Shown: positions 13,806-63,941, numbered from the stretch's first letter. The stretch is DNA of 64,000 nt from a bacterium (GCA_027482685.1 JAIXVU010000008.1:68652-132651), one strand, 5' to 3'. Numbers and translations are program-made. The notes: generated by a model from the sequence alone, not told the origin.

Positions 13806-14003
13806 TTACTCGTGCTTCTTATATACACGGCATGCATAGCCTTTGTATTTCTTTTTTGCATCTGGTGACGCAATCTTTCGTTCACCAGCTGTCACGCACG
13901 CAGCATGAGACTTGAGCCCTGCCACGGTCTCGTAATGAAGCGTCACCATCGGGCCAGACTCAGCATGGAGACTATAGAGCAGTACCAAAACAATTACTTG
14001 CAT
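13806..14003 (-). CDS. small hypothetical protein (65 aa) with a basic C-terminus
   Basis: GGAG 7 nt upstream of the ATG. Sits between the rpoC terminator and the dnaG upstream region. No recognisable family. Confidence 0.25.
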   Translation of the reverse strand: MQVIVLVLLYSLHAESGPMVTLHYETVAGLKSHAACVTAGERKIASPDAKKKYKGYACRVYKKHE

Positions 14004-14066
14004 AAAGAACTCCAGTTAGTTGGCCAAGACACATCTATAGAATATTCCTTGTTTTTTAAAAATGCA

Positions 14067-14098
14067 AAAGTGGCGCCTACGGCGCCACTTTTGTTTTC
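14067..14098. terminator. GC-palindrome terminator (AAAGTGGCGCC-tac-GGCGCCACTTT), probably ending rpoBC
   Basis: A perfect stem. TTTTGCATTTTT on the minus side. Its core GGCGCCTACGGCGCC is identical to the hairpin at 57296-57324. Confidence 0.7.
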
Positions 14099-14118
14099 TA
14101 TTTGTATTTCAGTAAACG

Positions 14119-14243
14119 TCAGCCGGTTTCAAAATTGTTTTAGATGCGAGGAGCTTAAAAATTTTTGCACGAGACGTACTAGGTTGTACGTTGAGTGCAA
14201 AAATTTCGTAGCGACAAAGCAGATGAAATAATTTTGAAAGCGG
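14119..14243 (-). ncRNA. conserved structured 3'-trailer element, copy 1, immediately after the rpoC stop; its paralog is at 28225-28357
   Basis: About 125 nt alignable to the second copy. Nested inverted repeats AAATTTTTGCAC/GTGCAAAAATTT and ACGTAC/GTACGT. A compensatory change in the outer stem between copies. Confidence 0.45.
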
Positions 14244-17200
14244 TTATGCTTTCTTGTTACGAAGACCTGTACCAGCTGGAATAAGGCGTCCAATAATAAC
14301 ATTCTCCTTCAGCCCTCGTAGCTGATCAACCTGTCCACGAGTTGATGCTGTGATGAGCACTCTGGTCGTGTTCTGGAATGATGCACTTGATAGCCATGAG
14401 TCAGTTGATAGAGCAACATCGGTGATACCAAGTACAAGATGTCTACCTTTTGCTTCTGTTTGACCAAGAGCTTTTACACGAGAGTTTTCAGCGCGGAAGG
14501 TTGACACTTCAACAACATCTGACTGAGTAAAACGTGTATCTCCTGGATTAGTTATCTTCACACGTCCAAACATTTGCTTGATGATAACTTCGACGTGCTT
14601 ACGAGAGATAGACGCACCTTGAAGTTCGTAGACTTTGTTGATTTCAGCTACAATGTACTCTTCTGCAACTTCCTTACCAGCAAAGTTGAAGAGCTCATCA
14701 ATATCTGCTGATCCATCTGTTAACATCTGACCCTTCTTAACCTTATCTCCAATCTTTACGATTGATTGACGACGGAATGGTACCGTGTACTCAACTTGCT
14801 TACCACTCTTATTACCCTTTGATCCATCATCATCTGCTAGTAGTACAATAACTTTTTCTTTCCCTTCATCACGCATACCGATTATCTCTCCACTTTCGTG
14901 AGCAATAATTGCTGGGTTCTTAGGCATACGACGCTCGAAGATTTCTTCGACACGAGGAAGACCTTGTGTAATGTCTGCTCCTGCAACACCTCCTGAGTGG
15001 AAGGTACGCATCGTAAGCTGTGTTCCTGGTTCTCCGATTGCTTGCGCTGCAACGATACCGACTGCCTCACCTAGATCTACCTTCTTGTTACGCCCCATAT
15101 CAAGACCATAACACTTCTGACAGATTCCATGTAGTGACTGACACATAAGTGGAGAAAATACATTAACCTCGACAATACCCGCTCCTTCTATTGCAAGCGC
15201 ATCGTCTTTACTGAGAAGGTGATTCTTCTTAAAGAGCACTTCGCCATTAACATTGATATCATCAGCGATAACACGTCCACGAATATTCTTAGAGATTGGC
15301 ACCTCAATACCGAGAGCATTCTCTTTACGAATAAGCTTGCTTTCTTTTGTTCCACAATCAATTTCAGTAATGATTGCATCTTGTGCCACATCCACGAGAC
15401 GTCGTGTAAGATATCCTGCTTGCGCTGTCTTAAGCGCGGTATCTGAGTTACCCTTACGAGCACCATAAGTAGTGATGAAGTACTCAAGTGGAGTTAGTCC
15501 TTCCTTGTATGATGAGATAACTGGGAAGTCCAAGTTACGTCCTGAGTTGTTAACGATAATACCCTTCATACCAGCCATCTGAATAATCTGTGCCATTGTT
15601 CCACGGGCACCGGATGTGATGAGGTCATACACTGAACCATGTTTAGCTATTGTTGCAGGAAGAGCCTTCTCGATACGTGCACGCACTCCTTGCCATACTT
15701 CAATAACTTTTTCATAACGTTCTTCTTGTGAAAGAAGACCCTCTTCATAATCACTTTCAATACGCGCAGCTTTTGACCAACCTTCAGCAACAAGTTCTTT
15801 CTTCTCTTTAGGAATGGTTACAGCGTCGATATTCCATGTTGTACCTGATACTGTCGCATACTTATACCCGAAGGCTTTTATCTTATCTATAACAGAAGGC
15901 GCAGTCTCAAGACCGTAAGTCAAGATAACTTCATCAATAATCGCTGTCATCTTTTTGATTGTTACTTCTTCATTAATATATGGGAAGTCACTTGGGAAGA
16001 CAGAGTTGAAAAGTAGCCGTCCAACGGTTGTCTCGAAACGCTCACCATTAAACTTCGCATACTTCTCCTTATCAGTTGGCATGACAGAAATCTTGGCACG
16101 GAAAGAAACAACACCGAAGTCATACGCTGTGATAGCTTCATTAGGTGCTTCAAAATATTTTCCTTCACCTTTCTCTCCATCAATCTGCTTAGTCATCCAG
16201 TACGCACCGAGCACCATATCCATACGAGGGTTAACAATAGAATCTCCTGATCCAGGCTTAAGGAGGTTACGGTTAGCTGCCATTAGTGTACGAGCTTCCT
16301 CTTGTGCTGCAACTGAAAGTGGTAAGTGTACTGCCATCTGGTCACCATCGAAGTCCGCGTTAAACGCCTGACATACAAGCGGATGAAGCTGGATAGCGTT
16401 ACCTTCGATAAGCTTCGGATTAAATGCTTGGATACCAAGGCGGTGGAGTGTAGGAGCACGGTTAAGAAGTACATATTTTCCGTCAATACATTCTTCAAGA
16501 ATTGCCCACACTTCAGGTATTCCGTCTTCAATCAATTTGTTGGCACCACGAATGTTAAACGCCAGCTCTCTTTCAAGAAGCTTAGAAATAACAAACGGCT
16601 TGAAGAGCTCAAGTGCCATATGCTTAGGTAGACCACACTCATTAAGTGAGAGCGATGGACCAACCACAATAACAGAACGTGCTGAATAATCTACACGCTT
16701 ACCGAGTAGGTTACCACGGAGAAGCCCTTGCTTACCTTTCAAGTTATCAGAGAGTGACTTGAGTTGACGCTTCTGTGATTGACTCATAACAGCATCTTGC
16801 CCATGACGTGCTGAGTTATCAATAAGCGCATCAACTGCTTCTTGCAAGATACGCTTCTCGTTACGGAGAATAACATCAGGCGCACCAATTTCCATCAACT
16901 TCTTAAGACGATTGTTACGATTAATCACTCGACGATAAAGATCGTTCACATCTGATGCTGCATAGCGTCCACCTTCAAGAGCAACCATAGGGCGAATACC
17001 TGGAGGAATAACTGGAATAACAGTCATAAACATCCACTCAGGACGAATACCTGCATTTTGGAAAGCACGCACAAGTGAGAGTCTCTTCTCAGCCTTCTCA
17101 CGCTCAAGAGCTCCAGCTTTCTCAAGTTGAACAACTATCTTTCCTTCAAGATCTTTAAGATCAATTGTCTTGAATATCTCATAGATAGCCTCTGCTCCGA

Positions 17201-17837
17201 TACCTGCTTCGAAACATGTCCCATACTTCATTGCAAAGCGGTGATAGGTAAGCTCATCGAAAATCTTCCATGGTTTGATCTCTTCTATCTCTTTCTTTGT
17301 TGCAGTGAGGAGTTCGCGGAGCTTATCCTGAGTTTTTTCATCACTTGCTGACTTTACCTTTGCCTTAAACTCACTGTCTAGATTAGCAAGTATCTCTTCC
17401 TTGGCAGCTTGGTTAACTGACTTGATAACATATCCAGCAAAGTAAATAACTTTCTCAACATCTCCAACTGGCTGAGCGAGGATAAGAGCGATACGTGATG
17501 GTACGGTACGAAGGAACCAAATATGAGCAACAGGAGACGCAAGTTCAATATGCCCCATACGTTCACGACGAACGATAGATTTTGTTACTTCTACACCACA
17601 CTTCTCACAGATGATACCCTTGTAACGAATACGCTTGTACTTTCCACAGTAACATTCGAAATCCTTTTCTGGACCGAATATTCTTTCATCAAAAAGACCG
17701 TAACGCTCGGAACGTCCTGTACGGTAGTTGATAGTCTCTGGCTTTGTAACTTCACCGTATGACCAAGAACGAACTGCTTCTGGAGATGCAATTTTAATCG
17801 CGAGGCTATCAAAATTATTTGTATCGATTGTTTTCAT
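14244..17837 (-). CDS. rpoC: DNA-directed RNA polymerase subunit beta'
   Basis: 1197 aa. Catalytic NADFDGDQMAVH. Zinc-binding CYCGKYKRIRYKGIICEKCGVEV. Confidence 0.97.
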   Translation of the reverse strand: MKTIDTNNFDSLAIKIASPEAVRSWSYGEVTKPETINYRTGRSERYGLFDERIFGPEKDFECYCGKYKRIRYKGIICEKCGVEVTKSIVRRERMGHIELASPVAHIWFLRTVPSRIALILAQPVGDVEKVIYFAGYVIKSVNQAAKEEILANLDSEFKAKVKSASDEKTQDKLRELLTATKKEIEEIKPWKIFDELTYHRFAMKYGTCFEAGIGAEAIYEIFKTIDLKDLEGKIVVQLEKAGALEREKAEKRLSLVRAFQNAGIRPEWMFMTVIPVIPPGIRPMVALEGGRYAASDVNDLYRRVINRNNRLKKLMEIGAPDVILRNEKRILQEAVDALIDNSARHGQDAVMSQSQKRQLKSLSDNLKGKQGLLRGNLLGKRVDYSARSVIVVGPSLSLNECGLPKHMALELFKPFVISKLLERELAFNIRGANKLIEDGIPEVWAILEECIDGKYVLLNRAPTLHRLGIQAFNPKLIEGNAIQLHPLVCQAFNADFDGDQMAVHLPLSVAAQEEARTLMAANRNLLKPGSGDSIVNPRMDMVLGAYWMTKQIDGEKGEGKYFEAPNEAITAYDFGVVSFRAKISVMPTDKEKYAKFNGERFETTVGRLLFNSVFPSDFPYINEEVTIKKMTAIIDEVILTYGLETAPSVIDKIKAFGYKYATVSGTTWNIDAVTIPKEKKELVAEGWSKAARIESDYEEGLLSQEERYEKVIEVWQGVRARIEKALPATIAKHGSVYDLITSGARGTMAQIIQMAGMKGIIVNNSGRNLDFPVISSYKEGLTPLEYFITTYGARKGNSDTALKTAQAGYLTRRLVDVAQDAIITEIDCGTKESKLIRKENALGIEVPISKNIRGRVIADDINVNGEVLFKKNHLLSKDDALAIEGAGIVEVNVFSPLMCQSLHGICQKCYGLDMGRNKKVDLGEAVGIVAAQAIGEPGTQLTMRTFHSGGVAGADITQGLPRVEEIFERRMPKNPAIIAHESGEIIGMRDEGKEKVIVLLADDDGSKGNKSGKQVEYTVPFRRQSIVKIGDKVKKGQMLTDGSADIDELFNFAGKEVAEEYIVAEINKVYELQGASISRKHVEVIIKQMFGRVKITNPGDTRFTQSDVVEVSTFRAENSRVKALGQTEAKGRHLVLGITDVALSTDSWLSSASFQNTTRVLITASTRGQVDQLRGLKENVIIGRLIPAGTGLRNKKA

Positions 17838-17855
17838 AGTAGTTTGGTTACGAAA

Positions 17856-20800
17856 TTATAGAGACGTCTCACCTAGTAATTGTTCTGTGTATCCCTCTGG
17901 CTTAACAGGGTCTACATCAAGCGATAGTCCACGGAGTGTATTTAACATCACTGTAAACGACGCTGGTGTGTTAGGCTCTTGAACATCTTCACCTTTTATA
18001 ATGCTATCAAATGCAGCAGAGCGTCCTACGATGTCGTCTGACTTTACTGTTAGCATCTCACGTAAGATATGTGATGCGCCGTATCCTTCAAGCGCCCATA
18101 CTTCCATTTCCCCAAAGCGCTGACCTCCACCTTGAGCCTTTCCACCAAGTGGTTGCTGAGTGATAAGTGAGTATGGACCAATCGAACGCATGTGAATCTT
18201 ATCTTCAACCATGTGGTGAAGTTTCATAATATACATCACACCAACTGCAGTCTCTTGATTAAACGCTTCACCTGTTCGTCCATCATAGAGCTGAATAGTT
18301 CCTGATGCTGAATACCCTGCTTTTACAAGTTCTTCTTTTATTTCAGCATCACTTGCTCCTTGGAATGATGGAACAATAGCTTGATATCCAAGAGAATCTG
18401 CTGCAAGACCGAGGTGCATCTCGAGAATCTGTCCAAGGTTCATACGTGATGGCACACCAAGCGGTGTAAGAATGATATCTATAGGAGTCCCATCTGCTGC
18501 AAACGGCATTTCTTCTACTGGGAGGATTGTTGAGATAACACCTTTGTTACCGTGACGGCCTGCAAGCTTATCTCCAACTGAGATGTTACGCACTTGCGCA
18601 ACTTCAATATGAATACGCTTGATGATACCACTTTCAAGGTGATCCCCTCGTTCACGAGAAAATACTTTTACTCCGATGATACGTCCACGCTTACCATGAT
18701 CAAGACGAAGTGATGAGTCCTTCACATCACGCACCTTCTCACCGAAGATTGAACGAAGAAGTCTCTCTTCTGGGGTAAGTTCTGTCTCACCCTTTGGTGT
18801 AATCTTACCTACGAGAATATCTCCTGGGCGAACTTCTGCTCCGATACGGATAATACCGTCCTCATCTAAGTTCTTAAGCTTATTCTCTCCAACGTTTGGA
18901 ATATCATGTGTTGTGACTTCTGCTCCTAACTTCGTATCACGTACATTACATACGAACTCTTCGATGTGAATAGATGAAAACTTACTTTCCTTAACGAGTC
19001 TCTCTGAGAGAATGATCGCATCTTCGTAGTTCGCACCATTCCATGACATGAATGCCACACGAATGTTATGCCCAAGTGCAATCTGTCCATTATCTGATGT
19101 TGCAGCGTCCGCTAGTACTTGGCCTTTCTTTACTTTATCACCAAGTGACACAATAGGTCTCTGGTGGAAAAGGTTAAAGGCGTTTGTTCGAGCAAAGTTA
19201 ATGAGTGGGTACTCATATTCTTTTTTATCAGCCTTAAGTACTATCTTCTTAGCATCGACATACTTAATCTCTCCTGCTTCATCAGCTATAACAAGACGTC
19301 CAATATGCTTTGCAGCAACCCCTTCCATACCTGTAGCTACAAGAGGCGCTTCTGGGCACATAAGTGGAACTGCTTGCTTTTGCATGTTTGAACCCATGAG
19401 TGCACGTGATGCGTCATCGTGCTCGAGGAATGGAATCATAGAGGTTGCAACAGAGAATGCTTGGTTAGTTGCTACGTCGATGAACTCGACTTCACTCTTA
19501 GGTGCAAGTCCTGGCTGACCAACACGACGGATCTCAATTTCATCCCCTAGTAGATTTCCTTTCTCGTCATACTTATTCCCAGCATGCGCGATAATGTGAC
19601 GCTCTTCTTCAAGTGCGTTCATGTATACTATCTCTTTTGTAATCTTTCCGTCCTTTACTTTTACATATGGAGTCTCGATGATACCGAAATCATTGATACG
19701 CGCATAGTTAGAAAGACGAAGGATAAGACCGATGTTCGGACCTTCTGGGGTGTGGATAGGACATACACGACCATAGTGTGATGTGTGCACGTCACGAACT
19801 TCAAATCCAGCACGCTCACGTGTAAGACCTCCAGGACCAAGGGCAGAGAGAGTACGAAGGTGTTCAACTTCAGCGAGCAAGTTCTCTTGGTTCATGAACT
19901 GTGAGAGCTGGTTAGTAGTAAAGAACTCTTTGATACGAGCCTGTAGTGGACGCTGGTTGATGATAGCAATAGGAAGCGTGGTATCTGTATCAATAACAGA
20001 CATCTTGTCTTGGATGTTACGCTTCATCTGCATCATACCTGTACGAATCTTCTGTGCCATCATTTCACCTACATAACGAACGCGACGTGATCCAAGGTGG
20101 TCAATATCATCCTCTTCTGCGTTAGGATCATTGTTTAGTTCAACAATGTGTTTAATGATATCCACCATATCTTCCTTAGATAGTGTTCGGCGTTGTGCTT
20201 CTTTATCTTTAGGGTCAATAGACTTACCAAAACGCTTGTTGAAACGAAAACGCCCAACAGGAGAAAGGTCATAACGCTCAGGAGACACGATAGAGTCAAT
20301 GTATTCCTTTGCGTTTTCTGGAGTAGCGAGATCACCATCACGAAGTCTCTTGTAGATCTCTATATATGCATCATGAAGTGTCTTTACTTCATCACGCTCA
20401 ACTAAAGCAGAAATAATTGGTGAAGCTACTTCATGATCATTAAACGCTGCTTTTATTTGTTCATCAGTAGTGAATCCAAGCACGCGAAGAAGTGCAACGA
20501 CAGAGAACTTACGCTTCTTGTCGATACGAACATATACTCCACCGTCAGCTTCTGTCCCAAGTTCAATCCATACACCACGAGATGGAATGATTTTTGCACC
20601 GAAGTATCTTTTTCCTTTTGATTCTTCTGAGTCAAAGAATACACCGAATGATCGAGCAAGTTGTGGTACAACTACACGCTCAACACCGTTAATGATGAAT
20701 GTTCCATGAATAGTCATCAGTGGAAAATCCGCCATGAATATTTCCTGCTCTTTTGTAGTATTTAATATTTTGTTGGTGAGCTTCACACGAGCACGTAGTG

Positions 20801-21074
20801 GTGCCTCATAGGTAAGCTTGTTCTCCTTTGCGTACACTTCATCGTACTTTGGAGCTGAGAGTTCAAAAGAGATGAACTCGAGATCGAATTTCTTCTCAGA
20901 GTAATCACGAAGTGGTGAGAACTCACGGAAAATTTCTACTATGCCTTTTTCTGTAAGGTCCTTGTATGAAAGAATCTGGTTTTCAACTAAGTTAGGAATA
21001 TCAGTCAGTGGTGTACTGTACTTTGCAAACGTTTTTTGTGGGCGAGCACCGGCGGTTAGATATGTTTTTGGCAT
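17856..21074 (-). CDS. rpoB: DNA-directed RNA polymerase subunit beta. Start taken as MPKTY (ATG at 21074); the ORF extends to a GTG at 21092.
   Basis: About 1072 aa. N-terminus ...IPNLVENQILSY. Conserved beta-subunit blocks throughout. rpoB-rpoC order. Confidence 0.97.
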   Translation of the reverse strand: MPKTYLTAGARPQKTFAKYSTPLTDIPNLVENQILSYKDLTEKGIVEIFREFSPLRDYSEKKFDLEFISFELSAPKYDEVYAKENKLTYEAPLRARVKLTNKILNTTKEQEIFMADFPLMTIHGTFIINGVERVVVPQLARSFGVFFDSEESKGKRYFGAKIIPSRGVWIELGTEADGGVYVRIDKKRKFSVVALLRVLGFTTDEQIKAAFNDHEVASPIISALVERDEVKTLHDAYIEIYKRLRDGDLATPENAKEYIDSIVSPERYDLSPVGRFRFNKRFGKSIDPKDKEAQRRTLSKEDMVDIIKHIVELNNDPNAEEDDIDHLGSRRVRYVGEMMAQKIRTGMMQMKRNIQDKMSVIDTDTTLPIAIINQRPLQARIKEFFTTNQLSQFMNQENLLAEVEHLRTLSALGPGGLTRERAGFEVRDVHTSHYGRVCPIHTPEGPNIGLILRLSNYARINDFGIIETPYVKVKDGKITKEIVYMNALEEERHIIAHAGNKYDEKGNLLGDEIEIRRVGQPGLAPKSEVEFIDVATNQAFSVATSMIPFLEHDDASRALMGSNMQKQAVPLMCPEAPLVATGMEGVAAKHIGRLVIADEAGEIKYVDAKKIVLKADKKEYEYPLINFARTNAFNLFHQRPIVSLGDKVKKGQVLADAATSDNGQIALGHNIRVAFMSWNGANYEDAIILSERLVKESKFSSIHIEEFVCNVRDTKLGAEVTTHDIPNVGENKLKNLDEDGIIRIGAEVRPGDILVGKITPKGETELTPEERLLRSIFGEKVRDVKDSSLRLDHGKRGRIIGVKVFSRERGDHLESGIIKRIHIEVAQVRNISVGDKLAGRHGNKGVISTILPVEEMPFAADGTPIDIILTPLGVPSRMNLGQILEMHLGLAADSLGYQAIVPSFQGASDAEIKEELVKAGYSASGTIQLYDGRTGEAFNQETAVGVMYIMKLHHMVEDKIHMRSIGPYSLITQQPLGGKAQGGGQRFGEMEVWALEGYGASHILREMLTVKSDDIVGRSAAFDSIIKGEDVQEPNTPASFTVMLNTLRGLSLDVDPVKPEGYTEQLLGETSL

Positions 21075-21336
21075 AAAGACAGATGTTGCCACACGGCTCT
21101 CTATATCCGTGTGACGTTACGTTACAATAAACTTTTATAAAAATTTTCTCTCATTCCCCAGTTGGTTCGAATAACCCAAAGTATTCGATACGTATGCAAA
21201 CCTTTCTCTCTATTTTTCGTAACTTAATCGTGGGTCAATAGTTGGATTATAATACCAGTAAATGAAGAAAATAGCAAATTCTATTAAAGACAATTATTAT
21301 TTTAATACGATAATATTTTATATGGGGTTTTGTAGG

Positions 21337-21526
21337 ACGATACGACAGATCTTTCGTATTAAATTTTTAAGTTTTTTCTTTTTAACCCCGCCCTTTCAAA
21401 GCACGGTACTTTTTTGCTAAAAAGTACCTCTGTTCCGCGCCGTCGCGCTTCCACGCGGCTTTAAAATGGCGGGGTTGGGTGTGGTGGATACAAAAGAGAA
21501 AGCCCGCCGAAGCGGGCTTTCTCTTA
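21337..21526 (-). ncRNA. conserved ~185-nt structured element, copy 1, upstream of rpoB. It begins with a bidirectional terminator palindrome. Its paralog is at 29929-30114.
   Basis: About 90% identical to the second copy. Three helices show compensatory changes between copies. A G-U wobble is tolerated only on the minus-strand transcript. Confidence 0.5.
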
Positions 21527-21531
21527 TCAAG

Positions 21532-22218
21532 CTAATCAATTTTATATATTGCAGTACGAATCTTTGCGTTTTCCTTACCCTCTCTATTCTCTGGTTTAAA
21601 TATGGAAGCAGTAATTGTTTTAGTGCCTTCATCAAAAGTGAAATCATAAGTGCTTCCAAATCCTCCGAGCTTGACGTATGTTTCTGTTCTTGGGTTAAGC
21701 TCTGACTTTGTAATTGTAACTATATCAGTTGAGCCTTTTTTATAATAAAGTATAAGAGTGTCATATACGACTACAATATAATTATCTGTTTCAACAAAAT
21801 TACCAAATAAAGTCATTCCAAGAGGGTTTTTGTCTAGCCGGTTAAGAGTGTTTACATCATATATACTTATATCAAGCCCAGCCTTGCCATTTAAGACAGC
21901 AAATGCGACAGTTTTATCGTCTCTATATTTTATTAGAATTGTTGACTTTGCTTGTGATGCATTATTATTATAGCTTTCAAGTATTGGTGTGTATACATCC
22001 GAATACTTTTCCGTATATCGATCAATGACTGCTTTATCTGCTACTGAAAGTTTATCGTATGGATACTCTTGAGTGGGTTGAACCGGAGCAGTAGTAGTGG
22101 TAGTAGCTGACTGAGTAGTATCATCCGTTATAATCGTCGTTTCTTTACTTTGGTAGAAAAAGGCTGCCAAACCAAAAAGTACAAACAAAATGATTATAAT
22201 TATATACGTTTTTTTCAT
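21532..22218 (-). CDS. hypothetical membrane-anchored/secreted protein (228 aa)
   Basis: N-terminal TM helix IIIIILFVLFGLAAFFY, then a Thr-rich linker. Confidence 0.5.
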   Translation of the reverse strand: MKKTYIIIIILFVLFGLAAFFYQSKETTIITDDTTQSATTTTTAPVQPTQEYPYDKLSVADKAVIDRYTEKYSDVYTPILESYNNNASQAKSTILIKYRDDKTVAFAVLNGKAGLDISIYDVNTLNRLDKNPLGMTLFGNFVETDNYIVVVYDTLILYYKKGSTDIVTITKSELNPRTETYVKLGGFGSTYDFTFDEGTKTITASIFKPENREGKENAKIRTAIYKID

Positions 22219-22284
22219 AAGAGCTTGATTATAACATAAAAAACCGAACTTTTTAGAGTTCGGTTAAAGACACTTGAAAACTGA

Positions 22285-24114
22285 TTAGAAACGACAACCA
22301 CTCAACCACAGACAAAAGCTGGGAGTGCCGTTGATATTTGCAAGGTAATCGAGAACTCCCGTTGCGCCGTTGTACCCATAAGGGTCAACAGTCGCATAGC
22401 TGTTTGGCTGATAATCATTGCTGTAACCACTTCGCAGCTTAAGAGTTTCGAAATGAAGATGTTGACCAACAGGCTTAGTTGGTGGAGATATATTTCCTGA
22501 CAAACCAATTTGTTGACCATCGACAACAGCTTGACCTGGGACAACGTCAATTCTGCTTAAGTGAAGATACTGACTGATAAACCCATTTCCGTGGTCGATA
22601 CCAATTGCTCCCCACGCAGCACATCCCTCGCTAATACCTTTCGGCACACAACCGCCGTTCTGATTGACAACCACACCACTTGCCGCCGCTCTCACTACAG
22701 TTCCAGTAATCGCGCTATAGTCATAGCCAGGATGAGCGTCATAGTTCAAGGCTGTGCCTGAGGTGCAGTTTTTAACACCGGTTCCCGATGTTCCCACATA
22801 AAGACTTGCCAAGAAACCTGACCATGACCCTGACTTTATCGGGTAACACGGAGAAGCTGCAGACATGGGGTAAGCCGGAGTTGCCTCAAACTCTTCGCCT
22901 GTGAAAGAAACAATTTTCCCTTCCTTTGAATAAAGGGTGGACATATAGTGATCAAGAATCGAAGTTATTCTTTGAGGTGTATAGGCCCCGAGAGGATAGT
23001 TGGCAGTTTGGATAGGGAACCGCATGATCATCCCCATCGTGTTGTCAATGAACTTTACGTCGTCGATCTTGAAAGATACTGCTTCACTTGAAGTGATAAT
23101 GAAACCACCCATATCAGCTGTACTACCACCCAAAATGGCGCTGAGCGGAATCATGGCCCGATACCATTTGCCGGGTGTTGCAGTCGTTGCAGAGGGTACG
23201 ATGTAATTTTCGAGATTTACAACTGAACCAACGACAGTATTGGTGTGATCAACCAGTTGACCATTTAGCCTCTGAGTTGAGGTGGTCTTTTGGAAATTAA
23301 CCGCTACGTGCGTATAGCTTGCTGAAGGCATCGTCCACCCTGCATAGATCTCATGAACCTGAATACCTCCGTATGCACTTGTTGGAGTGAAATCGATCCA
23401 GTAATTATCTGGTGTACCACCGATTGTTGGCGTAGGCCCACCCCAGGAAAACAAATAAGTTCCTGGACCTTTGGTACCAGCAACACCTTCAAACAGAGTC
23501 GTGTTGATATCGAACCGAAGTTCATCAACAAAGATTGTTGCCGACCCTGTCGGATCTTCAATTGCCACCCATTTTATCTGCGGATTTGGCCCCAAATTCA
23601 AGTGAGAAATCGGAATACGAAACCATGTCCACTTTCCAGTTGGGATAGTATTGGTTTCGCTGTAGCTTGTCAAAAGCAGATCAGTTCCTGAGCCGGCGGA
23701 TGTGCCTGCAATGAAGTGGAGCGAACTGCCGCCACTCACGTTGTAAATGGCGAGATTAAGCTCCTTGTAGCCGACGGTACTGAAATATCCGCTTCCACCC
23801 ACAACTCCTGGGGAAAATGCTCCCCAGGGAGCGTTGAACACAATCTTCGCAGCCTTCTGCCCTTTGAATAGGGTTGGGGGTGTTTCGAGTGTTGGTGTTG
23901 CAATACCCCAAGACCAGCTGTTCCAACCGAAGCCAAGCGAAGTGACTGGTGGGTACACGGTGTTGTCCGTGGTTAAGTTTTCGTCGAACATCGCTGACGA
24001 GACTTGGGCGTTCACACCCAAAGAAGCGACAAGCGCAAAGAGCGCTGCCAGCAATCTGATTAGTTTATTCACAGCAAACCTTTCGTAGTTGAGAAAGAAC
24101 ATCAACTTACGCAA
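22285..24114 (-). CDS. large secreted protein with a C-terminal M23 (LytM-type) peptidase domain
   Basis: Signal peptide LLAALFALVASLGVNAQ. M23 motifs HPGYDY...HGNGFISQYLHL...GQHLHFE. GC is elevated (about 50%). Confidence 0.75.
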   Translation of the reverse strand: MRKLMFFLNYERFAVNKLIRLLAALFALVASLGVNAQVSSAMFDENLTTDNTVYPPVTSLGFGWNSWSWGIATPTLETPPTLFKGQKAAKIVFNAPWGAFSPGVVGGSGYFSTVGYKELNLAIYNVSGGSSLHFIAGTSAGSGTDLLLTSYSETNTIPTGKWTWFRIPISHLNLGPNPQIKWVAIEDPTGSATIFVDELRFDINTTLFEGVAGTKGPGTYLFSWGGPTPTIGGTPDNYWIDFTPTSAYGGIQVHEIYAGWTMPSASYTHVAVNFQKTTSTQRLNGQLVDHTNTVVGSVVNLENYIVPSATTATPGKWYRAMIPLSAILGGSTADMGGFIITSSEAVSFKIDDVKFIDNTMGMIMRFPIQTANYPLGAYTPQRITSILDHYMSTLYSKEGKIVSFTGEEFEATPAYPMSAASPCYPIKSGSWSGFLASLYVGTSGTGVKNCTSGTALNYDAHPGYDYSAITGTVVRAAASGVVVNQNGGCVPKGISEGCAAWGAIGIDHGNGFISQYLHLSRIDVVPGQAVVDGQQIGLSGNISPPTKPVGQHLHFETLKLRSGYSNDYQPNSYATVDPYGYNGATGVLDYLANINGTPSFCLWLSGCRF

Positions 24115-24239
24115 AATTACGTAAGTTATCTCAGCATAGCATTTAATTTACAACTATTGTTGTTCATAGTAGAAAATAAGTGATTCACCAGCTTATATCC
24201 CCTCCTCAGTATAAACAATTCACTATATACTAAAAAGTA

Positions 24240-24836
24240 ATGAAAATACTTATAGTAACAGGACATCCGAGAAAAGAAAATCATACAGAACGGATTGCTA
24301 CAACATATAGAAATGAAGTTGAACGACTGGGACATACGGCGAATGTAATCAATGTCTACGATACAAAATACGAACTACCTTACATGAATTTTGAAAAAGA
24401 TTCGTTAAGTGAAGATGACCAGAAGAAAATTAAGAAGATGCAAGAGATGATCACGTGGGCAGACGAGCTTGTGTTCGTACATCCTATTTGGTGGGCGTCA
24501 ATGCCAGCTGGAATGAAAAACTGGGTAGATGCAATGTTTGCACCCCACTTTGCATACAAGTATAACGAGAAAGGAAAAGCAGAGCCCTTACTAATAGGTA
24601 AAATTGCAAAGGTGTTCTGTACAGCTGGATCATATGCATTTTATTATCGTATTCCTTGTATTAGATTCTTTACGCCCATCAATCTTATCTGGCGATATGC
24701 AATACTTGGATTTGCAGGCATTGAACTAGTTGATATCAAGATATGCGATAGAATGAATGTAAATAATGGTCTTCCGCCTAAAGGACGCTTTGAATCTTTT
24801 CTGAAAACTATCAAAAAATCAGCTGCACATCACTAG
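24240..24836 (+). CDS. flavodoxin-fold NAD(P)H-dependent oxidoreductase (NAD(P)H dehydrogenase (quinone)/YwrO-like)
   Basis: MKILIVTGHPRKEN...ADELVFVHPIWWASMPAGMKNWVDAMF, typical of the Flavodoxin_2 family. Confidence 0.7.
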   Translation: MKILIVTGHPRKENHTERIATTYRNEVERLGHTANVINVYDTKYELPYMNFEKDSLSEDDQKKIKKMQEMITWADELVFVHPIWWASMPAGMKNWVDAMFAPHFAYKYNEKGKAEPLLIGKIAKVFCTAGSYAFYYRIPCIRFFTPINLIWRYAILGFAGIELVDIKICDRMNVNNGLPPKGRFESFLKTIKKSAAHH

Positions 24837-24884
24837 ACTAGGTGTTAAATAGTTAGGAACTAGGGACTAGAAAATACAAAAGAA

Positions 24885-24915
24885 AAAGCGCGACCGTTGG
24901 TCGCGCTTCAGAGAT
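24885..24915. terminator. terminator hairpin AAGCGCGACC-gttg-GTCGCGCTT
   Basis: A perfect 10-bp stem preceded by AAAA on the plus strand. Confidence 0.55.
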
Positions 24916-25180
24916 GTACCACCGTCCCATCGCACAAGCGATGATCGAGTGAATCATGCTCAAGATGGTGAGTATCGTAGTTTTCAAAAAGTGGATGCTC
25001 ACGATACGCACACCCGCACAGGTGGCAAACCCTTCCACCACTTGCACGTCGCCACGTAGGGTCATCATCTTGATGAAGTGGTTGAAATGGTCGCTGACTG
25101 GACTCACGAAAGAGTAATCGGGTTAAACGACTCATCCCATGAGGTCGTCCCATACTCACATCTTCTAGATCATCATTCAT
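24908..25180 (-). CDS. hypothetical small Cys/His-rich protein (90 aa)
   Basis: CHLCGC...HHLEHDSLDHRLC. Overlaps the upstream ORF by 8 nt. GC is elevated. Confidence 0.3.
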   Translation of the reverse strand: MNDDLEDVSMGRPHGMSRLTRLLFRESSQRPFQPLHQDDDPTWRRASGGRVCHLCGCAYREHPLFENYDTHHLEHDSLDHRLCDGTVVHL

Positions 25181-25466
25181 TTGACAACCCTTTCAGTATT
25201 TGTATAAGTTGTTTTTGTCTCTCTGTATCTATCGTAAGAGATGTGATACTTTTGTGCGCGGATCTTCGCACCTCTTCATCTGGTGACATAAGATCCTGTG
25301 CGTAGCTTTCGTATAGACTACGCTGGATGATTTTCGCATTTTCGGTAATAGCAAACCCAGCGAGCACAACAGATCTCACGCCTGAAAGTTCGTGCTCAAA
25401 GACAATGGCAACATGAGTCCCCTCTGGGCATTCTGGAGGGAAATCGTTGTAGATAACTTTATACAT
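25173..25466 (-). CDS. hypothetical protein (97 aa)
   Basis: An ORF, translationally coupled to 24908-25180. Confidence 0.35.
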   Translation of the reverse strand: MYKVIYNDFPPECPEGTHVAIVFEHELSGVRSVVLAGFAITENAKIIQRSLYESYAQDLMSPDEEVRRSAHKSITSLTIDTERQKQLIQILKGLSNE

Positions 25467-25528
25467 TAGAAAACCTCCTGTATATCTAGCTACAGCAGAA
25501 CACCTCTCTTTAGACTACCATATCTATA

Positions 25529-26149
25529 TCATTTGAGATATTTTAGAATATTCTTAACATCTTCAAAGAGCACTTGCCTCATACTTCCATTATAGAGCGC
25601 AACCGCTGGATGATAGAGCGGAAGTAGTGTCGCCTCCCCCCATTCAAACATTCCCTTATATACCTGACCGTGCATTTGGCCAATTGGTTGCAATTCATTT
25701 GCAACACCACCTTTTGTAAAGAGGTACTTCATACTAATACGCCCCAGCATCACAATTACCTTTGGTTGTATAATTGCCAGTTGTCTATCAAGAAATGGTG
25801 CGTAGAGCGCTATCTCATCATCTGTCGGATCACGATTTTCAGGCGGTCTGTCTTTCACGAGATTAGTAATATAGACCACCTCTCTGCTTAGATGAATAGA
25901 TGTGAGCATCTCATCAAGTAATGTACCTGACCTTCCACAGAATGGTCTACCACTCTTTGCCTCCTTCTCCCCCGGAGCTTCACCAACAAAAACAATTGAC
26001 GCATCAAGCGATCCTTCACCAAGTACAGGAATATAGTTATTAATCGTGCGGTACGAATAAAGCGGTGAATGTGTAAGAGCGACTATATCATCATGTAACT
26101 GTTGCATCGCAGTAATCTTTTTGTCACGAGTTTTCATGTATATAAGCAT
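25529..26149 (-). CDS. uracil-DNA glycosylase, family 4
   Basis: GEAPGEKEAKSGRPFCGRSGTLL and HPAVALYN, as in family-4 UDGs. Confidence 0.8.
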   Translation of the reverse strand: MLIYMKTRDKKITAMQQLHDDIVALTHSPLYSYRTINNYIPVLGEGSLDASIVFVGEAPGEKEAKSGRPFCGRSGTLLDEMLTSIHLSREVVYITNLVKDRPPENRDPTDDEIALYAPFLDRQLAIIQPKVIVMLGRISMKYLFTKGGVANELQPIGQMHGQVYKGMFEWGEATLLPLYHPAVALYNGSMRQVLFEDVKNILKYLK

Positions 26150-26238
26150 AGCAAAAAGTTATCAACACAGACCCTTTACAAAAGTAGTAATAATTAGTAA
26201 TATAATTATGTCCAACTACATATGAAAGGAGGTCGGAC

Positions 26239-26595
26239 ATGAAGCTCTTTCACGGCATCAAAACGTGGTCCGTCGCAATGGTCGCTGTGCTCTGCACGCC
26301 GGCCGCCTACGCCAGTTCCTGCAACGGCATCACCGACTACGTCGGCGCCATGTGGCAACGTGAGATGGGGCACTTGTCCTATCACGCAGACATGTTCGGA
26401 ACGATGATCCTGACCGGTGATTACCGACTGTTCTGGGTCATGCAAGTGTGCTCGACCAAGAGCATCCTGTCGACGCTGTTCTTCAGCGTTCCGGGCTGGA
26501 TTGTCCTCGGACTGATGATCGTCTTGGCTCCGCGAGGATGGCGTCTGCTCAAGCGACATTCGCAGCTCCTGCGGCCTCGTCTCGCACGAATCTGA
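26239..26595 (+). CDS. hypothetical small membrane/secreted protein in a third GC-rich islet (about 60% GC)
   Basis: AAGGAGG 7 nt upstream of the ATG. Signal-like N-terminus. Terminator GCTCAAC...GTTGAGC + TTTTTTT at 26636-26668. Confidence 0.5.
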   Translation: MKLFHGIKTWSVAMVAVLCTPAAYASSCNGITDYVGAMWQREMGHLSYHADMFGTMILTGDYRLFWVMQVCSTKSILSTLFFSVPGWIVLGLMIVLAPRGWRLLKRHSQLLRPRLARI

Positions 26596-26635
26596 GAACC
26601 TCCTCGACTGTTACAGTCCCCACCGTCACAGTCTT

Positions 26636-26668
26636 CCCGCTCAACCCCACAAGTTGAGCTTTTTTTAT
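26636..26668 (+). terminator. rho-independent terminator
   Basis: GCTCAAC-ccacaa-GTTGAGC followed by TTTTTTTATT. Confidence 0.7.
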
Positions 26669-26684
26669 TGTATACTTTTATCTA

Positions 26685-27008
26685 ATGGACATACCTAATA
26701 TTAAAAACTTTATACATTACAAGACAAGAAAAAAATATCTAGCTCTAGATGTAGAACACCCTCTTGCAAATGCAGAATATTATCAGAATGATGATGAATC
26801 CTTTTCAATAGGTTTGTATACAATTGACGGGCAAGATCTTTTCATTGCTTGGGGTCCAAAAGGTAACTGTACACACCATGCGTTACTATTTACAAATCCA
26901 CCTATTACTGGAGAAGGTTGTGTTGATTTTAGTATTTATGGAAACAAAATTCTTTTTCGTGAAGAAGATAAAGACTACACGTATATAATTCCGAAAGTTA
27001 CAAATTAG
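26685..27008 (+). CDS. hypothetical protein (107 aa)
   Basis: An ORF only. Confidence 0.4.
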   Translation: MDIPNIKNFIHYKTRKKYLALDVEHPLANAEYYQNDDESFSIGLYTIDGQDLFIAWGPKGNCTHHALLFTNPPITGEGCVDFSIYGNKILFREEDKDYTYIIPKVTN

Positions 27009-27014
27009 AAACTA

Positions 27015-27371
27015 CTACTTCATCTCACGCAACCAATTCTTCATATACATTATTTCGTTTGATTGAGATACGATGATGTCACTTGCGAGTTTCTTTAATT
27101 TCTCATCCTTGGTAATCTCAAGTAACTCTTTTGACATTGTTACAGCAGATTTATGGTGAAGGATCATCTCTTCTAAGAATTGTTTATCGCTTGTAATAGG
27201 TGGATGCTCATCATGCATTGAAAACATCGCATCACCCTTAGACATAGAGGAACTACTATGCATATACCCATCACGCCATGTGACTACACCAAATGTAACC
27301 ACAACACCTACTAAGATACCGAAAAGGAGTACAGCTCCTTGAGATTGCTTGGTCGCTACTTTATGTTTCAT
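27015..27371 (-). CDS. DUF305-family (ferritin-like) secreted protein
   Basis: FLEEMILHHKSAVTMSKELL...KLKKLASDIIVSQSNEIMYMKNWL matches the DUF305 HH...M...W pattern. N-terminal TM/signal. Confidence 0.6.
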   Translation of the reverse strand: MKHKVATKQSQGAVLLFGILVGVVVTFGVVTWRDGYMHSSSSMSKGDAMFSMHDEHPPITSDKQFLEEMILHHKSAVTMSKELLEITKDEKLKKLASDIIVSQSNEIMYMKNWLREMK

Positions 27372-27484
27372 ATCAAAAAGTGTACCACACACTCTAATAA
27401 AAACTACTCCACATATGTGGAGTAGTTTTTGTATATATTTTTTGACCTACAAGAAACTATCTAGCGACACGCACCTGTGGCGAC

Positions 27485-28024
27485 TTAGTTAGACTTGAGA
27501 TACGCGAGCATGGTATCAGCGTCTGATACTTCAAACGGGTCGTTTGGAACATTATCACCAAATCCTGGCTCTACGAAGAGTTTCTTGATAACCCCGTCTT
27601 CTACTACCATAGAGTATCTCCATGATCTGTCTCCGAAGCCTAGGTTTTCTTTCTTAACAAGCATACCCATACCTTTTGTAAACTCGCCATTTCCGTCTGG
27701 AAGAAAATGAACTTTTTCAAGTCCTAGATTCTTCTTCCACTGGAACATAACGAATGCATCGTTAACTGAGAGACATATAACTTCATCTACTCCGAGTGCT
27801 TTTATCTCGTCATACTTTGCTTCATACCCTGGGGCATGTGTTGATGAACATGTTGGAGTAAAGGCTCCAGGAAGAGAAAATACTACGACTTTCTTTCCTT
27901 TGAAAATCTCATCTGTGGTAACATCTTGCCATCGGAATGGATTACCCCCTCCGATAGATTCATCACGCACGCGAGTCTTAAACGTAATCTGTGGAACTGA
28001 TGCTCCTTCTGTTAGTTGTGACAT
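27485..28024 (-). CDS. peroxiredoxin, Prx5-like subfamily
   Basis: [24 protein letters not shown] (peroxidatic Cys in a FTPTCS context). DAFVMFQW. Confidence 0.85.
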
Positions 28025-28177
28025 ATGTTGTAGTAATTAGTTATTAGTAATTGGTAATTAGAAAATACAAACTTCAAATTTCAATTCTATTCTTTTGCAG
28101 AACATTCATACCTGACAATTCTGCTATACATCTATAGTATCGTATCTTCTCGACACTTGCAAAAGAAATAGAGCGAC

Positions 28178-28203
28178 GCCTGTCAGCGTCGCTCTATTTC
28201 TTT
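28178..28203. terminator. GC-palindrome terminator, an exact inverted copy of the 10544-10569 element
   Basis: AGAGCGACGC-ctgtca-GCGTCGCTCT. Follows the helicase 3' element in minus orientation. Confidence 0.65.
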
Positions 28204-28224
28204 TGCATATTTACCAAATTCCTT

Positions 28225-28357
28225 CAGCGGTGGACGTTTCAAAAGATAAGAATTTTGGATGAGATGCGAGGCGAATAAAATTTTTGTGACTAAGGCGTAC
28301 ATCTAGTACGACGCATGGAACAAAAATTTTATTCAACGAAGCAGGTCACCAAAATTG
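28225..28357 (-). ncRNA. conserved structured 3'-trailer element, copy 2, immediately after the DEAD-box helicase stop
   Basis: Alignable to 14119-14243. Shared blocks GTTTCAAAA, GATGCGAGG, AAAATTTTTG, CGTAC..TAG..TACG, CAAAAATTT, AAGCAG. Confidence 0.45.
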
Positions 28358-29698
28358 TTATCTTTTTGGGACGAACGTAAGAGCATGGCCAAGTTTAGTC
28401 CCACGTCCTGTTCGCCCGATACGGTGAATATATGTCTCGTAGTTATTTGGAATATCGTAATTAACAACAAGAGATATATCGTTGATATCTAGTCCGCGCG
28501 CTGCAACATCAGTCGCAATCACAACTTGCACCTTACCAGAAGCGAGTGCCTTCACAGCACGCTCACGTTCACGATTATGCATATCACCATGTAGTGCGAG
28601 AGCCTTGAACCCACGTTTGGTAAGCTCATCAGTAAGTCCGTCAACATGACGCTTCATCTCACGGAAGATAAGAACCTTAGAGTATTCAGGCTTATTCAAA
28701 ATATCATGGAGAGCATCCACCTTTTCTGCATCAGTGGTTACACGTATTACATCCTGCATAACAGATGATGCGGTATCGCGTGACTTAATAGATACAGTCA
28801 CAGGGTCAACGAGGAAATCTGTACAGAGTCTCTTAATCTCTGGACTAAATGTTGCAGAGAAGAAAAGCCCTTGCTTGTCCTTTGGCATAGCACCTAAGAT
28901 TGAACGCATATCATCAATGAATCCCATGTCTAGCATACGGTCTGCTTCATCAAGTACGATACTATCGAAGAAACTCATGTTGATCTTCCTACGTTCGATA
29001 AGATCCTTCACACGTCCTGGTGTTCCGATAACGGCGTTAACGCCTAGCTCAAGCTCTTTTATCTGTCGCATGATTGGTGAACCACCAACACAAGATACAG
29101 AGAAGAGCTTCATCCCGCGTGTGAACGCTACGAACTCTGCCTCAACCTGCATAGCAAGTTCACGAGTTGGAGTAAGTACCATCATCTTGTGATCTTTATC
29201 AGCTACGAGCTTGTTGATGAGTGGAATTAAAAATGCTGCTGTCTTCCCTGTTCCGGTAGATGCAATACCTATCACATCTTTTCCTGTGAGTACTTGTGGG
29301 ATTGCTTGGTCTTGTATTGGAGATGGATTGATGAGACCTTTTGCAGTTAAGTTCGCAGAGAGTAGCTCATGAATGTTGAAATCCGTGAACTTGTGTGTTG
29401 GAGTGTAGTTGTTGGTTTCTGCGATACCAACCTCTTTGTTAATGAAAAGCTTCTCGTCGATATAGTCCTTCTTAAATGATCGCTTAGCGTTAAATGGGCG
29501 AGGTGATGAAGCGCCACGAGAAAATCCACCACGTGAACCTCCGCGTGGTGCATATCCTCCACGTGAGCCTCCGTCACGTGATGATGAACCGCGTGGTGAA
29601 TAGCCTCCTTCGCGAGGAGATGATGAGTAAGAACGAGGTGAACGTGTGCGAGAATCGGTACGTGAGTCAGAAGACCCACCAGTTGTTATGGTATACAT
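28358..29698 (-). CDS. DEAD-box ATP-dependent RNA helicase with an N-terminal RG/RS-rich disordered extension. The ORF extends to 29734.
   Basis: Q-motif through motif VI: GKDVIGIASTGTGKT, DEAD (VLDEADRML), SAT, HRIGRTGR. Confidence 0.9.
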   Translation of the reverse strand: MYTITTGGSSDSRTDSRTRSPRSYSSSPREGGYSPRGSSSRDGGSRGGYAPRGGSRGGFSRGASSPRPFNAKRSFKKDYIDEKLFINKEVGIAETNNYTPTHKFTDFNIHELLSANLTAKGLINPSPIQDQAIPQVLTGKDVIGIASTGTGKTAAFLIPLINKLVADKDHKMMVLTPTRELAMQVEAEFVAFTRGMKLFSVSCVGGSPIMRQIKELELGVNAVIGTPGRVKDLIERRKINMSFFDSIVLDEADRMLDMGFIDDMRSILGAMPKDKQGLFFSATFSPEIKRLCTDFLVDPVTVSIKSRDTASSVMQDVIRVTTDAEKVDALHDILNKPEYSKVLIFREMKRHVDGLTDELTKRGFKALALHGDMHNRERERAVKALASGKVQVVIATDVAARGLDINDISLVVNYDIPNNYETYIHRIGRTGRGTKLGHALTFVPKR

Positions 29699-29928
29699 AT
29701 GTATTTGTAGGCAAGAACACGCGAAATAACGCAATGATTCTTATTTAGTTAATTTCATTATTTGCGCTTACCTTCAGTAAAAAGAGAAGGGTTGTATGGT
29801 TAACCACAACGCGTCAAATCAGAAAAACCTTTTGCCTGACTACACAGTGATATCCATAAAGGAAATAATACAACTATTATAGCAAACTATAGACTTTTTG
29901 TCAAACAAACTTTAATTACCATAGTGGC

Positions 29929-30114
29929 ACGATACGTAAAATATTTTGTATTAAAATTTTTAAGTTTTTTCTATTACCCTCCACCCTTTCAAAGCACAGT
30001 ACTTTTTTGCTAAAAAGTACCTCTGTTCCGCGCCGTCGCGCTTCCACGCGGCTTTGAAATGGTGGAGTTGGTTTGGTTACTACAAATGAAAAAGCCCACC
30101 GAGGTGGCTTTTGA
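29929..30114 (-). ncRNA. conserved ~185-nt structured element, copy 2, upstream of the DEAD-box helicase
   Basis: See copy 1. Includes terminator palindrome AAAAGCCCACC-gag-GTGGGCTTTT. Confidence 0.5.
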
Positions 30115-62678: not shown

Positions 62679-62845
62679 AGCAATACTTATAATACTACCG
62701 TATCTTAAGCATAATGATAATCAAAAAAGACAGCTACTATACTAAGAAGTATATATAGAGAAGACAAGATTCTCTTATATATCACTCATCCACCGCTCAA
62801 CAAAAATGGCCACCTGGGTTCTAGGGTGGCGCATTTTTGTACAAG

Positions 62846-62932
62846 CGGAGAAAGTGGGATTCGAACCCACGGGGCTAATAAAAGCCCGACGGTTTAGTAA
62901 ACCGTTGATTTAAACCACTCATCCATTTCTCC
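62846..62932 (-). tRNA. type-II tRNA, Ser-like (G73 discriminator, long variable arm), with anticodon loop TTACTAA, i.e. apparent anticodon ACT
   Basis: Reverse complement GGAGAAATGGATGAGTGGTTTAAATCAACGGTTTACTAAACCGTCGGGCTTTTATTAGCCCCGTGGGTTCGAATCCCACTTTCTCCG. Confidence 0.6.
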
Positions 62933-63850: not shown

Positions 63851-63853
63851 TTG

Positions 63854-63941
63854 CGGAGACGATGAGATTCGAACTCATGAAGGTATTACTACCTTGCCTC
63901 GTTAGCAGTGAGGTGCCTTCGACCAGCTCAGCCACGTCTCC
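63854..63941 (-). tRNA. tRNA-Ser(GCT), type II
   Basis: Reverse complement GGAGACGTGGCTGAGCTGGTCGAAGGCACCTCACTGCTAACGAGGCAAGGTAGTAATACCTTCATGAGTTCGAATCTCATCGTCTCCG. Confidence 0.8.

Follow-up and report, generated by a model that had tools for sequence, protein, structure and literature searches.

Why should an rpoB-rpoC operon and a gene for a DEAD-box RNA helicase be flanked by copies of the same two noncoding repeats? The question arises from a 64,000-nucleotide (nt) stretch of bacterial DNA (GCA_027482685.1 JAIXVU010000008.1:68652-132651, here called the window), in which one repeat, the 5′ element, lies upstream of rpoB and again upstream of the helicase gene, and another, the 3′ element, lies directly past the stop codons of rpoC and of the helicase gene (Table 1). 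The original prediction saw in this a single architecture that brackets both units and places them under common post-transcriptional control. We consider it probable instead that the apparent shared architecture arises where two repeat families, unrelated to each other, happen to lie on intergenic regions that are otherwise ordinary and compact, in which the terminator of the preceding gene would be followed by a promoter, a gene-specific leader, the gene, and a terminator.

The window has a GC content of ~41%, and close homologues of its helicase and RpoC carry the labels Candidatus Paceibacterota, Pacebacteria, Nomurabacteria, or Patescibacteria; on these labels, the host is a bacterium of the candidate phyla radiation (CPR), Paceibacteria-like. 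For comparison, we used relatives whose helicase is 87 to 88% identical to that of the window (loci L012 to L015) or whose RpoC is 89 to 91% (L136 to L140) or 88% identical (L141), together with a clade whose RpoC is 74% identical. The presence of rpoC and the helicase gene was the ground on which these loci were picked, and the sampling is thus centred on those genes.

The 5′ element and the promoters

Both repeats exist as had been described: each occurs exactly twice in the window, at the two units, and within the window only these two units carry both. The two copies of the 5′ element align over 185 nt at 85.4% identity (E = 4e-53), with a 118-nt stretch at 92% identity and 63 identical nt, and a 21-mer of the core has exactly two occurrences in the window (versus 0 expected). 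The core itself, a GC-rich segment of ~89 nt (21474-21386 and 30067-29978), has a predicted three-way junction fold (z = -4.1 and -4.9), and the few copy-to-copy differences in its closing stem are compensatory or wobble changes. The copy upstream of rpoB includes a hairpin (21520-21499) that resembles a terminator and belongs to the preceding gene, the core, and an A-rich tail. The 3′ element is far more diverged, its two copies of ~133 nt being about 65 to 75% identical, and the copies share a motif that is found exactly twice in the window (versus 0.06 expected). Each forms a long hairpin (z = -5.6 to -9.9), and our covariance model of the family, R1, finds two full matches only in the 64 kb (93.3 and 85.5 bits; both copies were in its training alignment). 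The GC-palindrome terminators reported past both 3′ elements are likewise present.

The placing of the 5′ element within the transcript, on the other hand, did not hold. The stretch that separates it from each gene, which had been taken for a ~200-nt AT-rich untranslated region (UTR), contains the sigma-70-type promoters of rpoB and of the helicase gene. The element thus sits upstream of both promoters and should not be part of the rpoB or helicase mRNA as predicted from the promoter positions. The promoters and leaders of both genes are kept in relatives that lack the 5′ element. The core of the element was not found upstream of rpoB or the helicase gene in any relative examined, where blastn and nhmmer searches of all fetched loci returned terminator-like matches only. 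A scan of genome contigs with a 21-mer of the core gave five chance matches, in high-GC genomes, a metagenome scan with a 22-mer gave no match, and neither did a scan of viral sequences.

The 5′ element thus looks like a lineage-specific insertion or duplication, to which we assign no function. The A-rich tail of the helicase copy is similar to the ancestral helicase-upstream sequence in L139, and the region upstream of rpoB varies among relatives, which points, most simply, to the rpoB copy having been duplicated from the segment upstream of the helicase gene or having been inserted separately into similar surroundings. The element would then be recent in this lineage, where the core was inserted and/or the intergenic segment upstream of the helicase gene was copied to the site upstream of rpoB.

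Two other identities were considered for the 5′ element. A leader or riboswitch was rejected on the position of the conserved -35 and -10 boxes, downstream of it. A small RNA (sRNA) gene on the plus strand, ending at the upstream bidirectional terminator, was not supported; the promoter-like matches at 21287-21314 and 29898-29925 are not equally far from the conserved block and do not exceed what chance would give. The hairpins upstream of the element resemble terminators of the preceding genes, and a consensus terminator scan did not flag them.

The neighborhood of the rpoB copy is distinctive in its own right. Between a flavodoxin-like gene and rpoB, the window (21532-24114, minus strand) carries an M23 peptidase gene and a gene for a 228-amino-acid secreted-looking protein that occur there in this genome only; relatives have nothing or other small open reading frames (ORFs) at the equivalent place, so that the second 5′ copy sits at a variable spot. 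The window organism was found elsewhere solely in short-read assemblies from one study, whose contigs break off inside both copies of the 5′ element, as is expected of a repeat.

The leaders that follow the two promoters are long (~170 nt for the helicase gene, 29699-29875; ~150 nt for rpoB, 21093-21248; both on the minus strand) and are conserved in relatives, with stretches such as gtattatttcc.ttatggatatc..gtgtagtcagg and, just past the -10 box, ACTATTGACC....GA.TGAGT.AC. Neither leader is related to the other, and both are candidate gene-specific regulatory leaders.

The post-stop hairpin and its family

In the window, each 3′ element stands between the stop codon and a separate terminator 25 to 50 nt downstream, a position from which the element is predicted to be transcribed within the 3′ UTRs of rpoC and the helicase gene. 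The outer stem of the helicase copy takes in the last codons and the stop codon of the gene. Neither copy has a T-run. The rpoC copy scores 93.3 bits with R1 on the plus strand versus 14 on the minus strand, and its predicted folding energy is -61 kcal/mol on the plus strand versus -39 kcal/mol on the minus strand.

Among close relatives, a copy lies directly past rpoC, in the same antisense orientation, in L136, L137, L139, and L140 (55 to 89 bits; the copies at that site were not used in training), and these copies differ by compensatory stem changes. No copy was found past rpoC in L141 or in the clade with 74% identical RpoC. Past the helicase gene, a copy is present in the window and in L012/L136 and is not present in L015, L137, L139, or L140; the L012 copy has different stem sequences with the same flanking motifs and spacing. 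L139 only has a copy directly past the sigma-70 gene rpoD (17837-17969, minus strand). Copies also occur in the 5′ leader of the helicase gene, ending just before the start codon, in L136 (1806-1937, plus strand) and L139 (658-792, plus strand), where they lie in the orientation opposite to that of the 3′-UTR copies and place the purine-loop strand in the mRNA; no leader copy was found in the helicase leader of the window or of L015. The apical part of the window helicase copy nearly equals that of the L137 rpoC copy. Such a distribution is what a mobile or recombining element shows once one of its copies, here that past rpoC, has become fixed. Because four relatives carry the 3′ element without the 5′ element, the two elements occur independently, the distribution that the original prediction had itself named as speaking against it.

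The 3′ element belongs to a much wider family. A gapped search pattern built from the conserved motifs, CTGCTTYGTYG-N50-75-CCTCGCATCT, matches at least 120 metagenome contigs that range from 35% to 75% GC, the commonest contig type being Methylomirabilota (a neighboring NAD synthase shares 90% identity with a protein so labelled). The consensus ends of the family are CCAGATGCGAGG... and ...CAACGAAGCAGATGG, and an apical module, CTCAACGTAC-loop-GTACGCCTCG, is conserved as well, beyond the motifs used in the search. In a structural alignment of 37 diverse copies, 44 pairs make up a single long hairpin, whose purine-rich internal loops are conserved, as is its CGUAC...GUACG apical stem. Standard pairs fill 90.2% of the cells over these 44 pairs (versus 33 to 40% with the partners slid), 35 pairs are changed on both sides, and the covariation score is 0.54 versus 0.09 to 0.16; these values were reached by 0 of 500 shuffles. 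The outer stem (helix 1) covaries, and the ten CPR copies alone give the same covariation result. On the strand AGAUGCGAGG...CAACGAAGCAGAUG, 121 of 124 copies fold better, by a mean of 13.5 kcal/mol. The covarying stems and fixed loops indicate long-term selection on structure rather than recent copying.

The metagenome copies have one end fixed against a gene end. They lie for the most part between convergent genes (39 cases) or past co-directional ones (29 + 10), rarely between divergent genes (5), and in the co-directional contexts the better-folding strand is antisense in 29 cases versus 10. The fixed end abuts the stop codon of the gene on the strand opposite the better fold: a stop triplet, most commonly TAG, stands at the element edge in 79 of 106 copies (versus a 23% background), and CTAG stands at the left boundary in 34 of 106 (versus 0.6%), many copies being without it on the right side. 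The neighboring genes are functionally unrelated (60 Pfam families in 41 proteins), which speaks against the common control proposed for the bracketed genes. Several single loci contain second, degenerate, or tandem copies; in Methylomirabilota, the family is multicopy and sometimes tandem, and its hairpins have A5/T5 tracts (TTTTT) on both sides.

The 3′ family was not found in plasmids or in viral contigs and phages, and neither it nor the 5′ element has a match in Rfam 15 that reaches the gathering score of a curated covariance model: the whole window and 14 metagenome loci gave tRNAs only, the copy in L046 gave nothing at E <= 1, and the E-value mode gave terminator-like noise only for both window regions, those of the 5′ and of the 3′ element. 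Literature searches by sequence string and topic turned up no description of it. Likeness to 6S or signal recognition particle RNA is without Rfam support, inspection found no defining motifs of a kink-turn, and a protein-coding reading was ruled out, as the stems covary and follow genome GC. The one metagenome match that fell within a secY-like gene (L052) was set aside as due to chance.

Two metagenome loci deserve separate mention. In L116 (offset 245), the apical module CTCAACGTAC...GTACGCCTCG is inverted with respect to the hairpin base. L043 (Ga0153915_10141833) contains an IS630-like insertion sequence (IS) with a DDE_3 transposase and inverted repeats GTGTCCCGAGTCTGA, inserted at the TA within CTAG exactly at the CTAG that bounds the hairpin; since the inverted repeats are unrelated, derivation of the 3′ element from this IS was rejected.

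Known repeat systems and rival explanations

Among known elements, the family resembles the REP, BIME, and REPIN palindromes of Enterobacteria and Pseudomonas, which are mobilized by RAYT, in being intergenic and multicopy, in lying at gene 3′ ends as transcribed 3′-UTR hairpins that can sit a few nt from stop codons, and in persisting vertically; the long hairpins of about 100 nt formed by REPINs are also similar. A REP is described in PMC3733652 as a 20- to 40-bp palindrome with a GTAG or CGTC tag at one end, and by that description the 3′ family differs in having a single unit of ~130 nt without either tag at its consensus ends. It differs from REP and REPIN also in its conserved purine-rich loops, the same loop sequences recurring in unrelated phyla. 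No RAYT, Y1 transposase, or integrase was seen in the flanks of 3′ copies, in fragments of up to 23 kb per genome.

Bacterial miniature inverted-repeat transposable elements (MITEs), such as Correia/NEMIS, ERIC, RUP, and BOX, and those of the IS630/Tc1 type with TA duplication in CTAG, share with the 3′ family the terminal inverted repeats, the long hairpin, a length of 100 to 160 nt, insertion polymorphism between relatives, and co-transcription with neighboring genes. The family has terminal inverted repeats and multiple copies per genome, by which MITEs are defined, and the frequent TA/CTAG boundary of its Methylomirabilota copies is MITE-like; unlike in MITEs, the stems covary and are adapted to genome GC while the loops are fixed. 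Intrinsic (bidirectional) terminators are also hairpins past genes, and the A- and T-tracts around the Methylomirabilota copies are similar to theirs, but the window 3′ element has no T-tract, is much longer, has sequence-conserved internal loops, and is followed by a separate canonical terminator. In kind, then, the family appears nearest to REP/REPIN and MITE, without fully fitting the definition of either.

On the reading that we prefer, the 3′ element would be a member of a widespread family of ~130-nt imperfect palindromes with one end fixed against a stop codon, a nonautonomous element like REP/REPIN or MITE that differs in presence between close relatives and would be exchanged between nonorthologous copies. 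In the Paceibacteria subclade, one copy would have become fixed past rpoC, where its structure would be kept by compensatory changes. The simplest mechanism we can infer is that of a 3′ stem-loop, which in the window may protect or process the mRNA end or affect events at the stop codon. The alternative offered in the original prediction, a mobile promoter/terminator cassette, comes nearer the truth than a bracketing control system: the 3′ family does show insertion polymorphism, although the elements carry neither promoter nor terminator.

A number of observations weigh against this account, and the rival explanations draw on several of them. All ten CPR copies seen adjoin rpoC, rpoD, or the helicase gene (in a sampling centred there), and both repeats fall on the same two of the roughly 45 to 60 transcription units in the window, with a chance of ~1e-3 under naive uniform placement. 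We found neither a transposase or recombinase beside any of the copies nor a parent IS whose ends match, the inverted repeats of the sole neighboring one (in L043) being different; the CPR copies show no clear target-site duplications and no CTAG/TA boundary. The visible sequence of ~23 kb per relative limits the comparison. The structure is strand specific, with G.U in 143 cells versus A.C in 27, three conserved G.U columns, and tandem G.A pairs, and the internal loops are 81% purine and keep the same sequence in genomes of 35% to 75% GC. Fixed loops and strand specificity are foreign to ordinary MITEs and suggest that a partner or a function is conserved. The better-folding strand, moreover, is antisense to the adjacent gene, so that a simple 3′-UTR stem-loop role does not account for the structure that has been selected. 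The placing of every copy in the clade, together with the improbable joint placement, is what remains of the proposed link between RNA polymerase and the helicase; a single control system behind that link was not supported. One could still see in it a coordinated regulon of this Paceibacteria lineage, in which cis-regulatory parts, the 3′ hairpin at first and the 5′ element later, serve rpoBC, rpoD, and the helicase gene, for example through a shared protein or RNA that binds the conserved loops or through pairing of complementary 5′-leader and 3′-UTR copies, the helicase leader copies carrying the strand opposite to that of the 3′-UTR copies. We regard this as unlikely. The rpoC copy is indeed kept in five genomes with compensatory changes, but the helicase and rpoD copies come and go between close relatives, none follows rpoC in L141 or the 74% clade, no gene family is associated with the element in other phyla, the promoters lie downstream of the 5′ element, which is missing in all relatives, and the association is partly built in by the choice of loci. 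A broader version, that the post-stop hairpin is a strand-specific element of distant phyla (Patescibacteria, Methylomirabilota, and others) bound by a conserved factor, recruited in Paceibacteria to the rpoC and rpoD 3′ ends and to both ends of the helicase gene, with the 5′ element as a second layer of the regulon, seems to us quite improbable.

The strand asymmetry of the fold and the conserved mismatches could instead reflect a single-stranded DNA site, the folded substrate of a recombinase or HUH nuclease comparable to attC, REP/RAYT, or an IS200/IS605 end, with position and polarity set by the insertion mechanism. The attC sites are imperfect palindromes of 57 to 141 bp that lie directly past ORFs, are conserved in structure more than in sequence, and act as the folded strand antisense to the ORF; their core sites are R″ (RYYYAAC) and R′ (GTTRRRY). 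The 3′ family shares with them the imperfect palindrome past an ORF, the primacy of structure, a length within the same range, and a fixed end at stop codons with the better strand antisense to the ORF, as in attC bottom strands, a likeness that by analogy would fit such a site, and the tandem copies, the enrichment of CTAG at the boundary, and the one inverted apical module are also in keeping with it. The R″ and R′ boxes, however, are missing from the consensus ends on either strand, there are no cassette arrays, many copies lie between convergent housekeeping genes, and the neighbors include rpoC, rpoD, and other housekeeping genes; the GTAG/CGTC tag of the REP definition quoted above is lacking as well, in an element far longer than the palindromes so defined, the flanks hold no integrase or Y1 transposase, and the better-folding strand in the window is, as inferred from GC skew, not the lagging-strand template. 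We hold such a site, too, to be a doubtful explanation. Conserved G.U and tandem G.A pairs, found on the purine-loop strand only, could also mean that this strand yields an RNA of its own, whether an sRNA, an RNA derived from a 3′ UTR, or a terminator or insulator against opposing transcription; in convergent pairs, the strand is the opposing gene's 3′ UTR, and the Methylomirabilota hairpins with their flanking tracts look like bidirectional terminators. Yet the CPR copies have no conserved promoter upstream on that strand, the window already has a bidirectional terminator just upstream on it, and the tandem gene contexts place the hairpin antisense in the majority counted above, all of which makes an independent RNA decidedly unlikely. 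We therefore keep to the two overlaid repeat families as the probable explanation.

The 3′ family, which appears neither in Rfam nor among the results of the literature searches, can credibly be taken as new, within an element type that is already known. If it is only REP/MITE-like, it is still useful to annotate, as it breaks short-read assemblies and marks gene ends, and it would be a rare case in which CPR and non-CPR phyla have a single such family in common. If a conserved binding partner does lie behind the strand-specific loops, they would indicate that a process not yet described takes place at gene ends, on RNA or on single-stranded DNA.

Features of the window

The coordinates of the two units and of their flanking elements are collected in Table 1. 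With the start chosen for the helicase gene, its product is exactly a protein already on record. At both 3′ elements, the layout is very compact, the T-tail TTTTGCA of the terminator serving also as the -35 box of the next promoter (14058-14070 and 28150-28165, minus strand): the tail of the terminator past the rpoC element overlaps the -35 box of the promoter that follows, and the terminator past the helicase element is followed by the redoxin promoter TTGCAA-17-TACTAT, an arrangement that is conserved in L012.

Table 1. Genes, repeats, promoters, and terminators at the two units, in window coordinates
Feature	Position	Strand	Basis and remarks
rpoB	17856-21092	-	Pfam
rpoC	14244-17837	-	Pfam; stop codon 14244-14246
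rpoB-rpoC operon	14244-21092	-	Pfam
DEAD-box RNA helicase gene	28358-29698	-	Pfam; ATG at 29698 taken as start
5′ element, copy 1	21337-21520	-	Upstream of rpoB promoter; alignment, fold
5′ element, copy 2	29929-30111	-	Upstream of DEAD-box promoter; core 30067-29978; alignment, fold
3′ element, copy 1	14116-14248	+	Long imperfect hairpin directly past rpoC stop; strand is that of the better fold and model match, antisense to rpoC
3′ element, copy 2	28236-28369	+	Directly past helicase stop; R1 85.5 bits; fold
rpoB promoter, TTGCTA-17-TATTAT, TG-extended	21249-21277	-	Downstream of 5′ element; conserved in L012, L015, L139
DEAD-box helicase promoter, TTGACA-17-TATAAT, 12/12, extended -10 (TG)	29876-29904	-	Downstream of 5′ element; conserved in L012, L015, L139
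Bidirectional intrinsic terminator	14064-14094	.	Downstream of rpoC 3′ element; terminator scan
Terminator, 22-bp perfect palindrome	28158-28207	.	Downstream of helicase 3′ element; inverted repeat; conserved in L012

Between the rpoC terminator and dnaG, gene callers run on contigs of the same organism give a 65-amino-acid ORF (13806-14003, minus strand) without family assignment and with a terminator-like hairpin of its own; other small ORFs occupy this gap in relatives. A common motif, TTTGTATTTTCTA(G/A)T..C.A.TT.CTAA, occurs on the minus strand at 24853-24880 and 28044-28071, the second time directly upstream of the redoxin start codon, and may serve a regulator of redox genes as its site; upstream of the flavodoxin-like gene, L012 has repeats of the TAGGGA type. 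Toward the end of the window, ARAGORN finds a tRNA-Ser with anticodon ACT near a tRNA-Ser with anticodon GCT (62845-62932 and 63853-63941, both on the minus strand), a serine tRNA with A34 being unusual.

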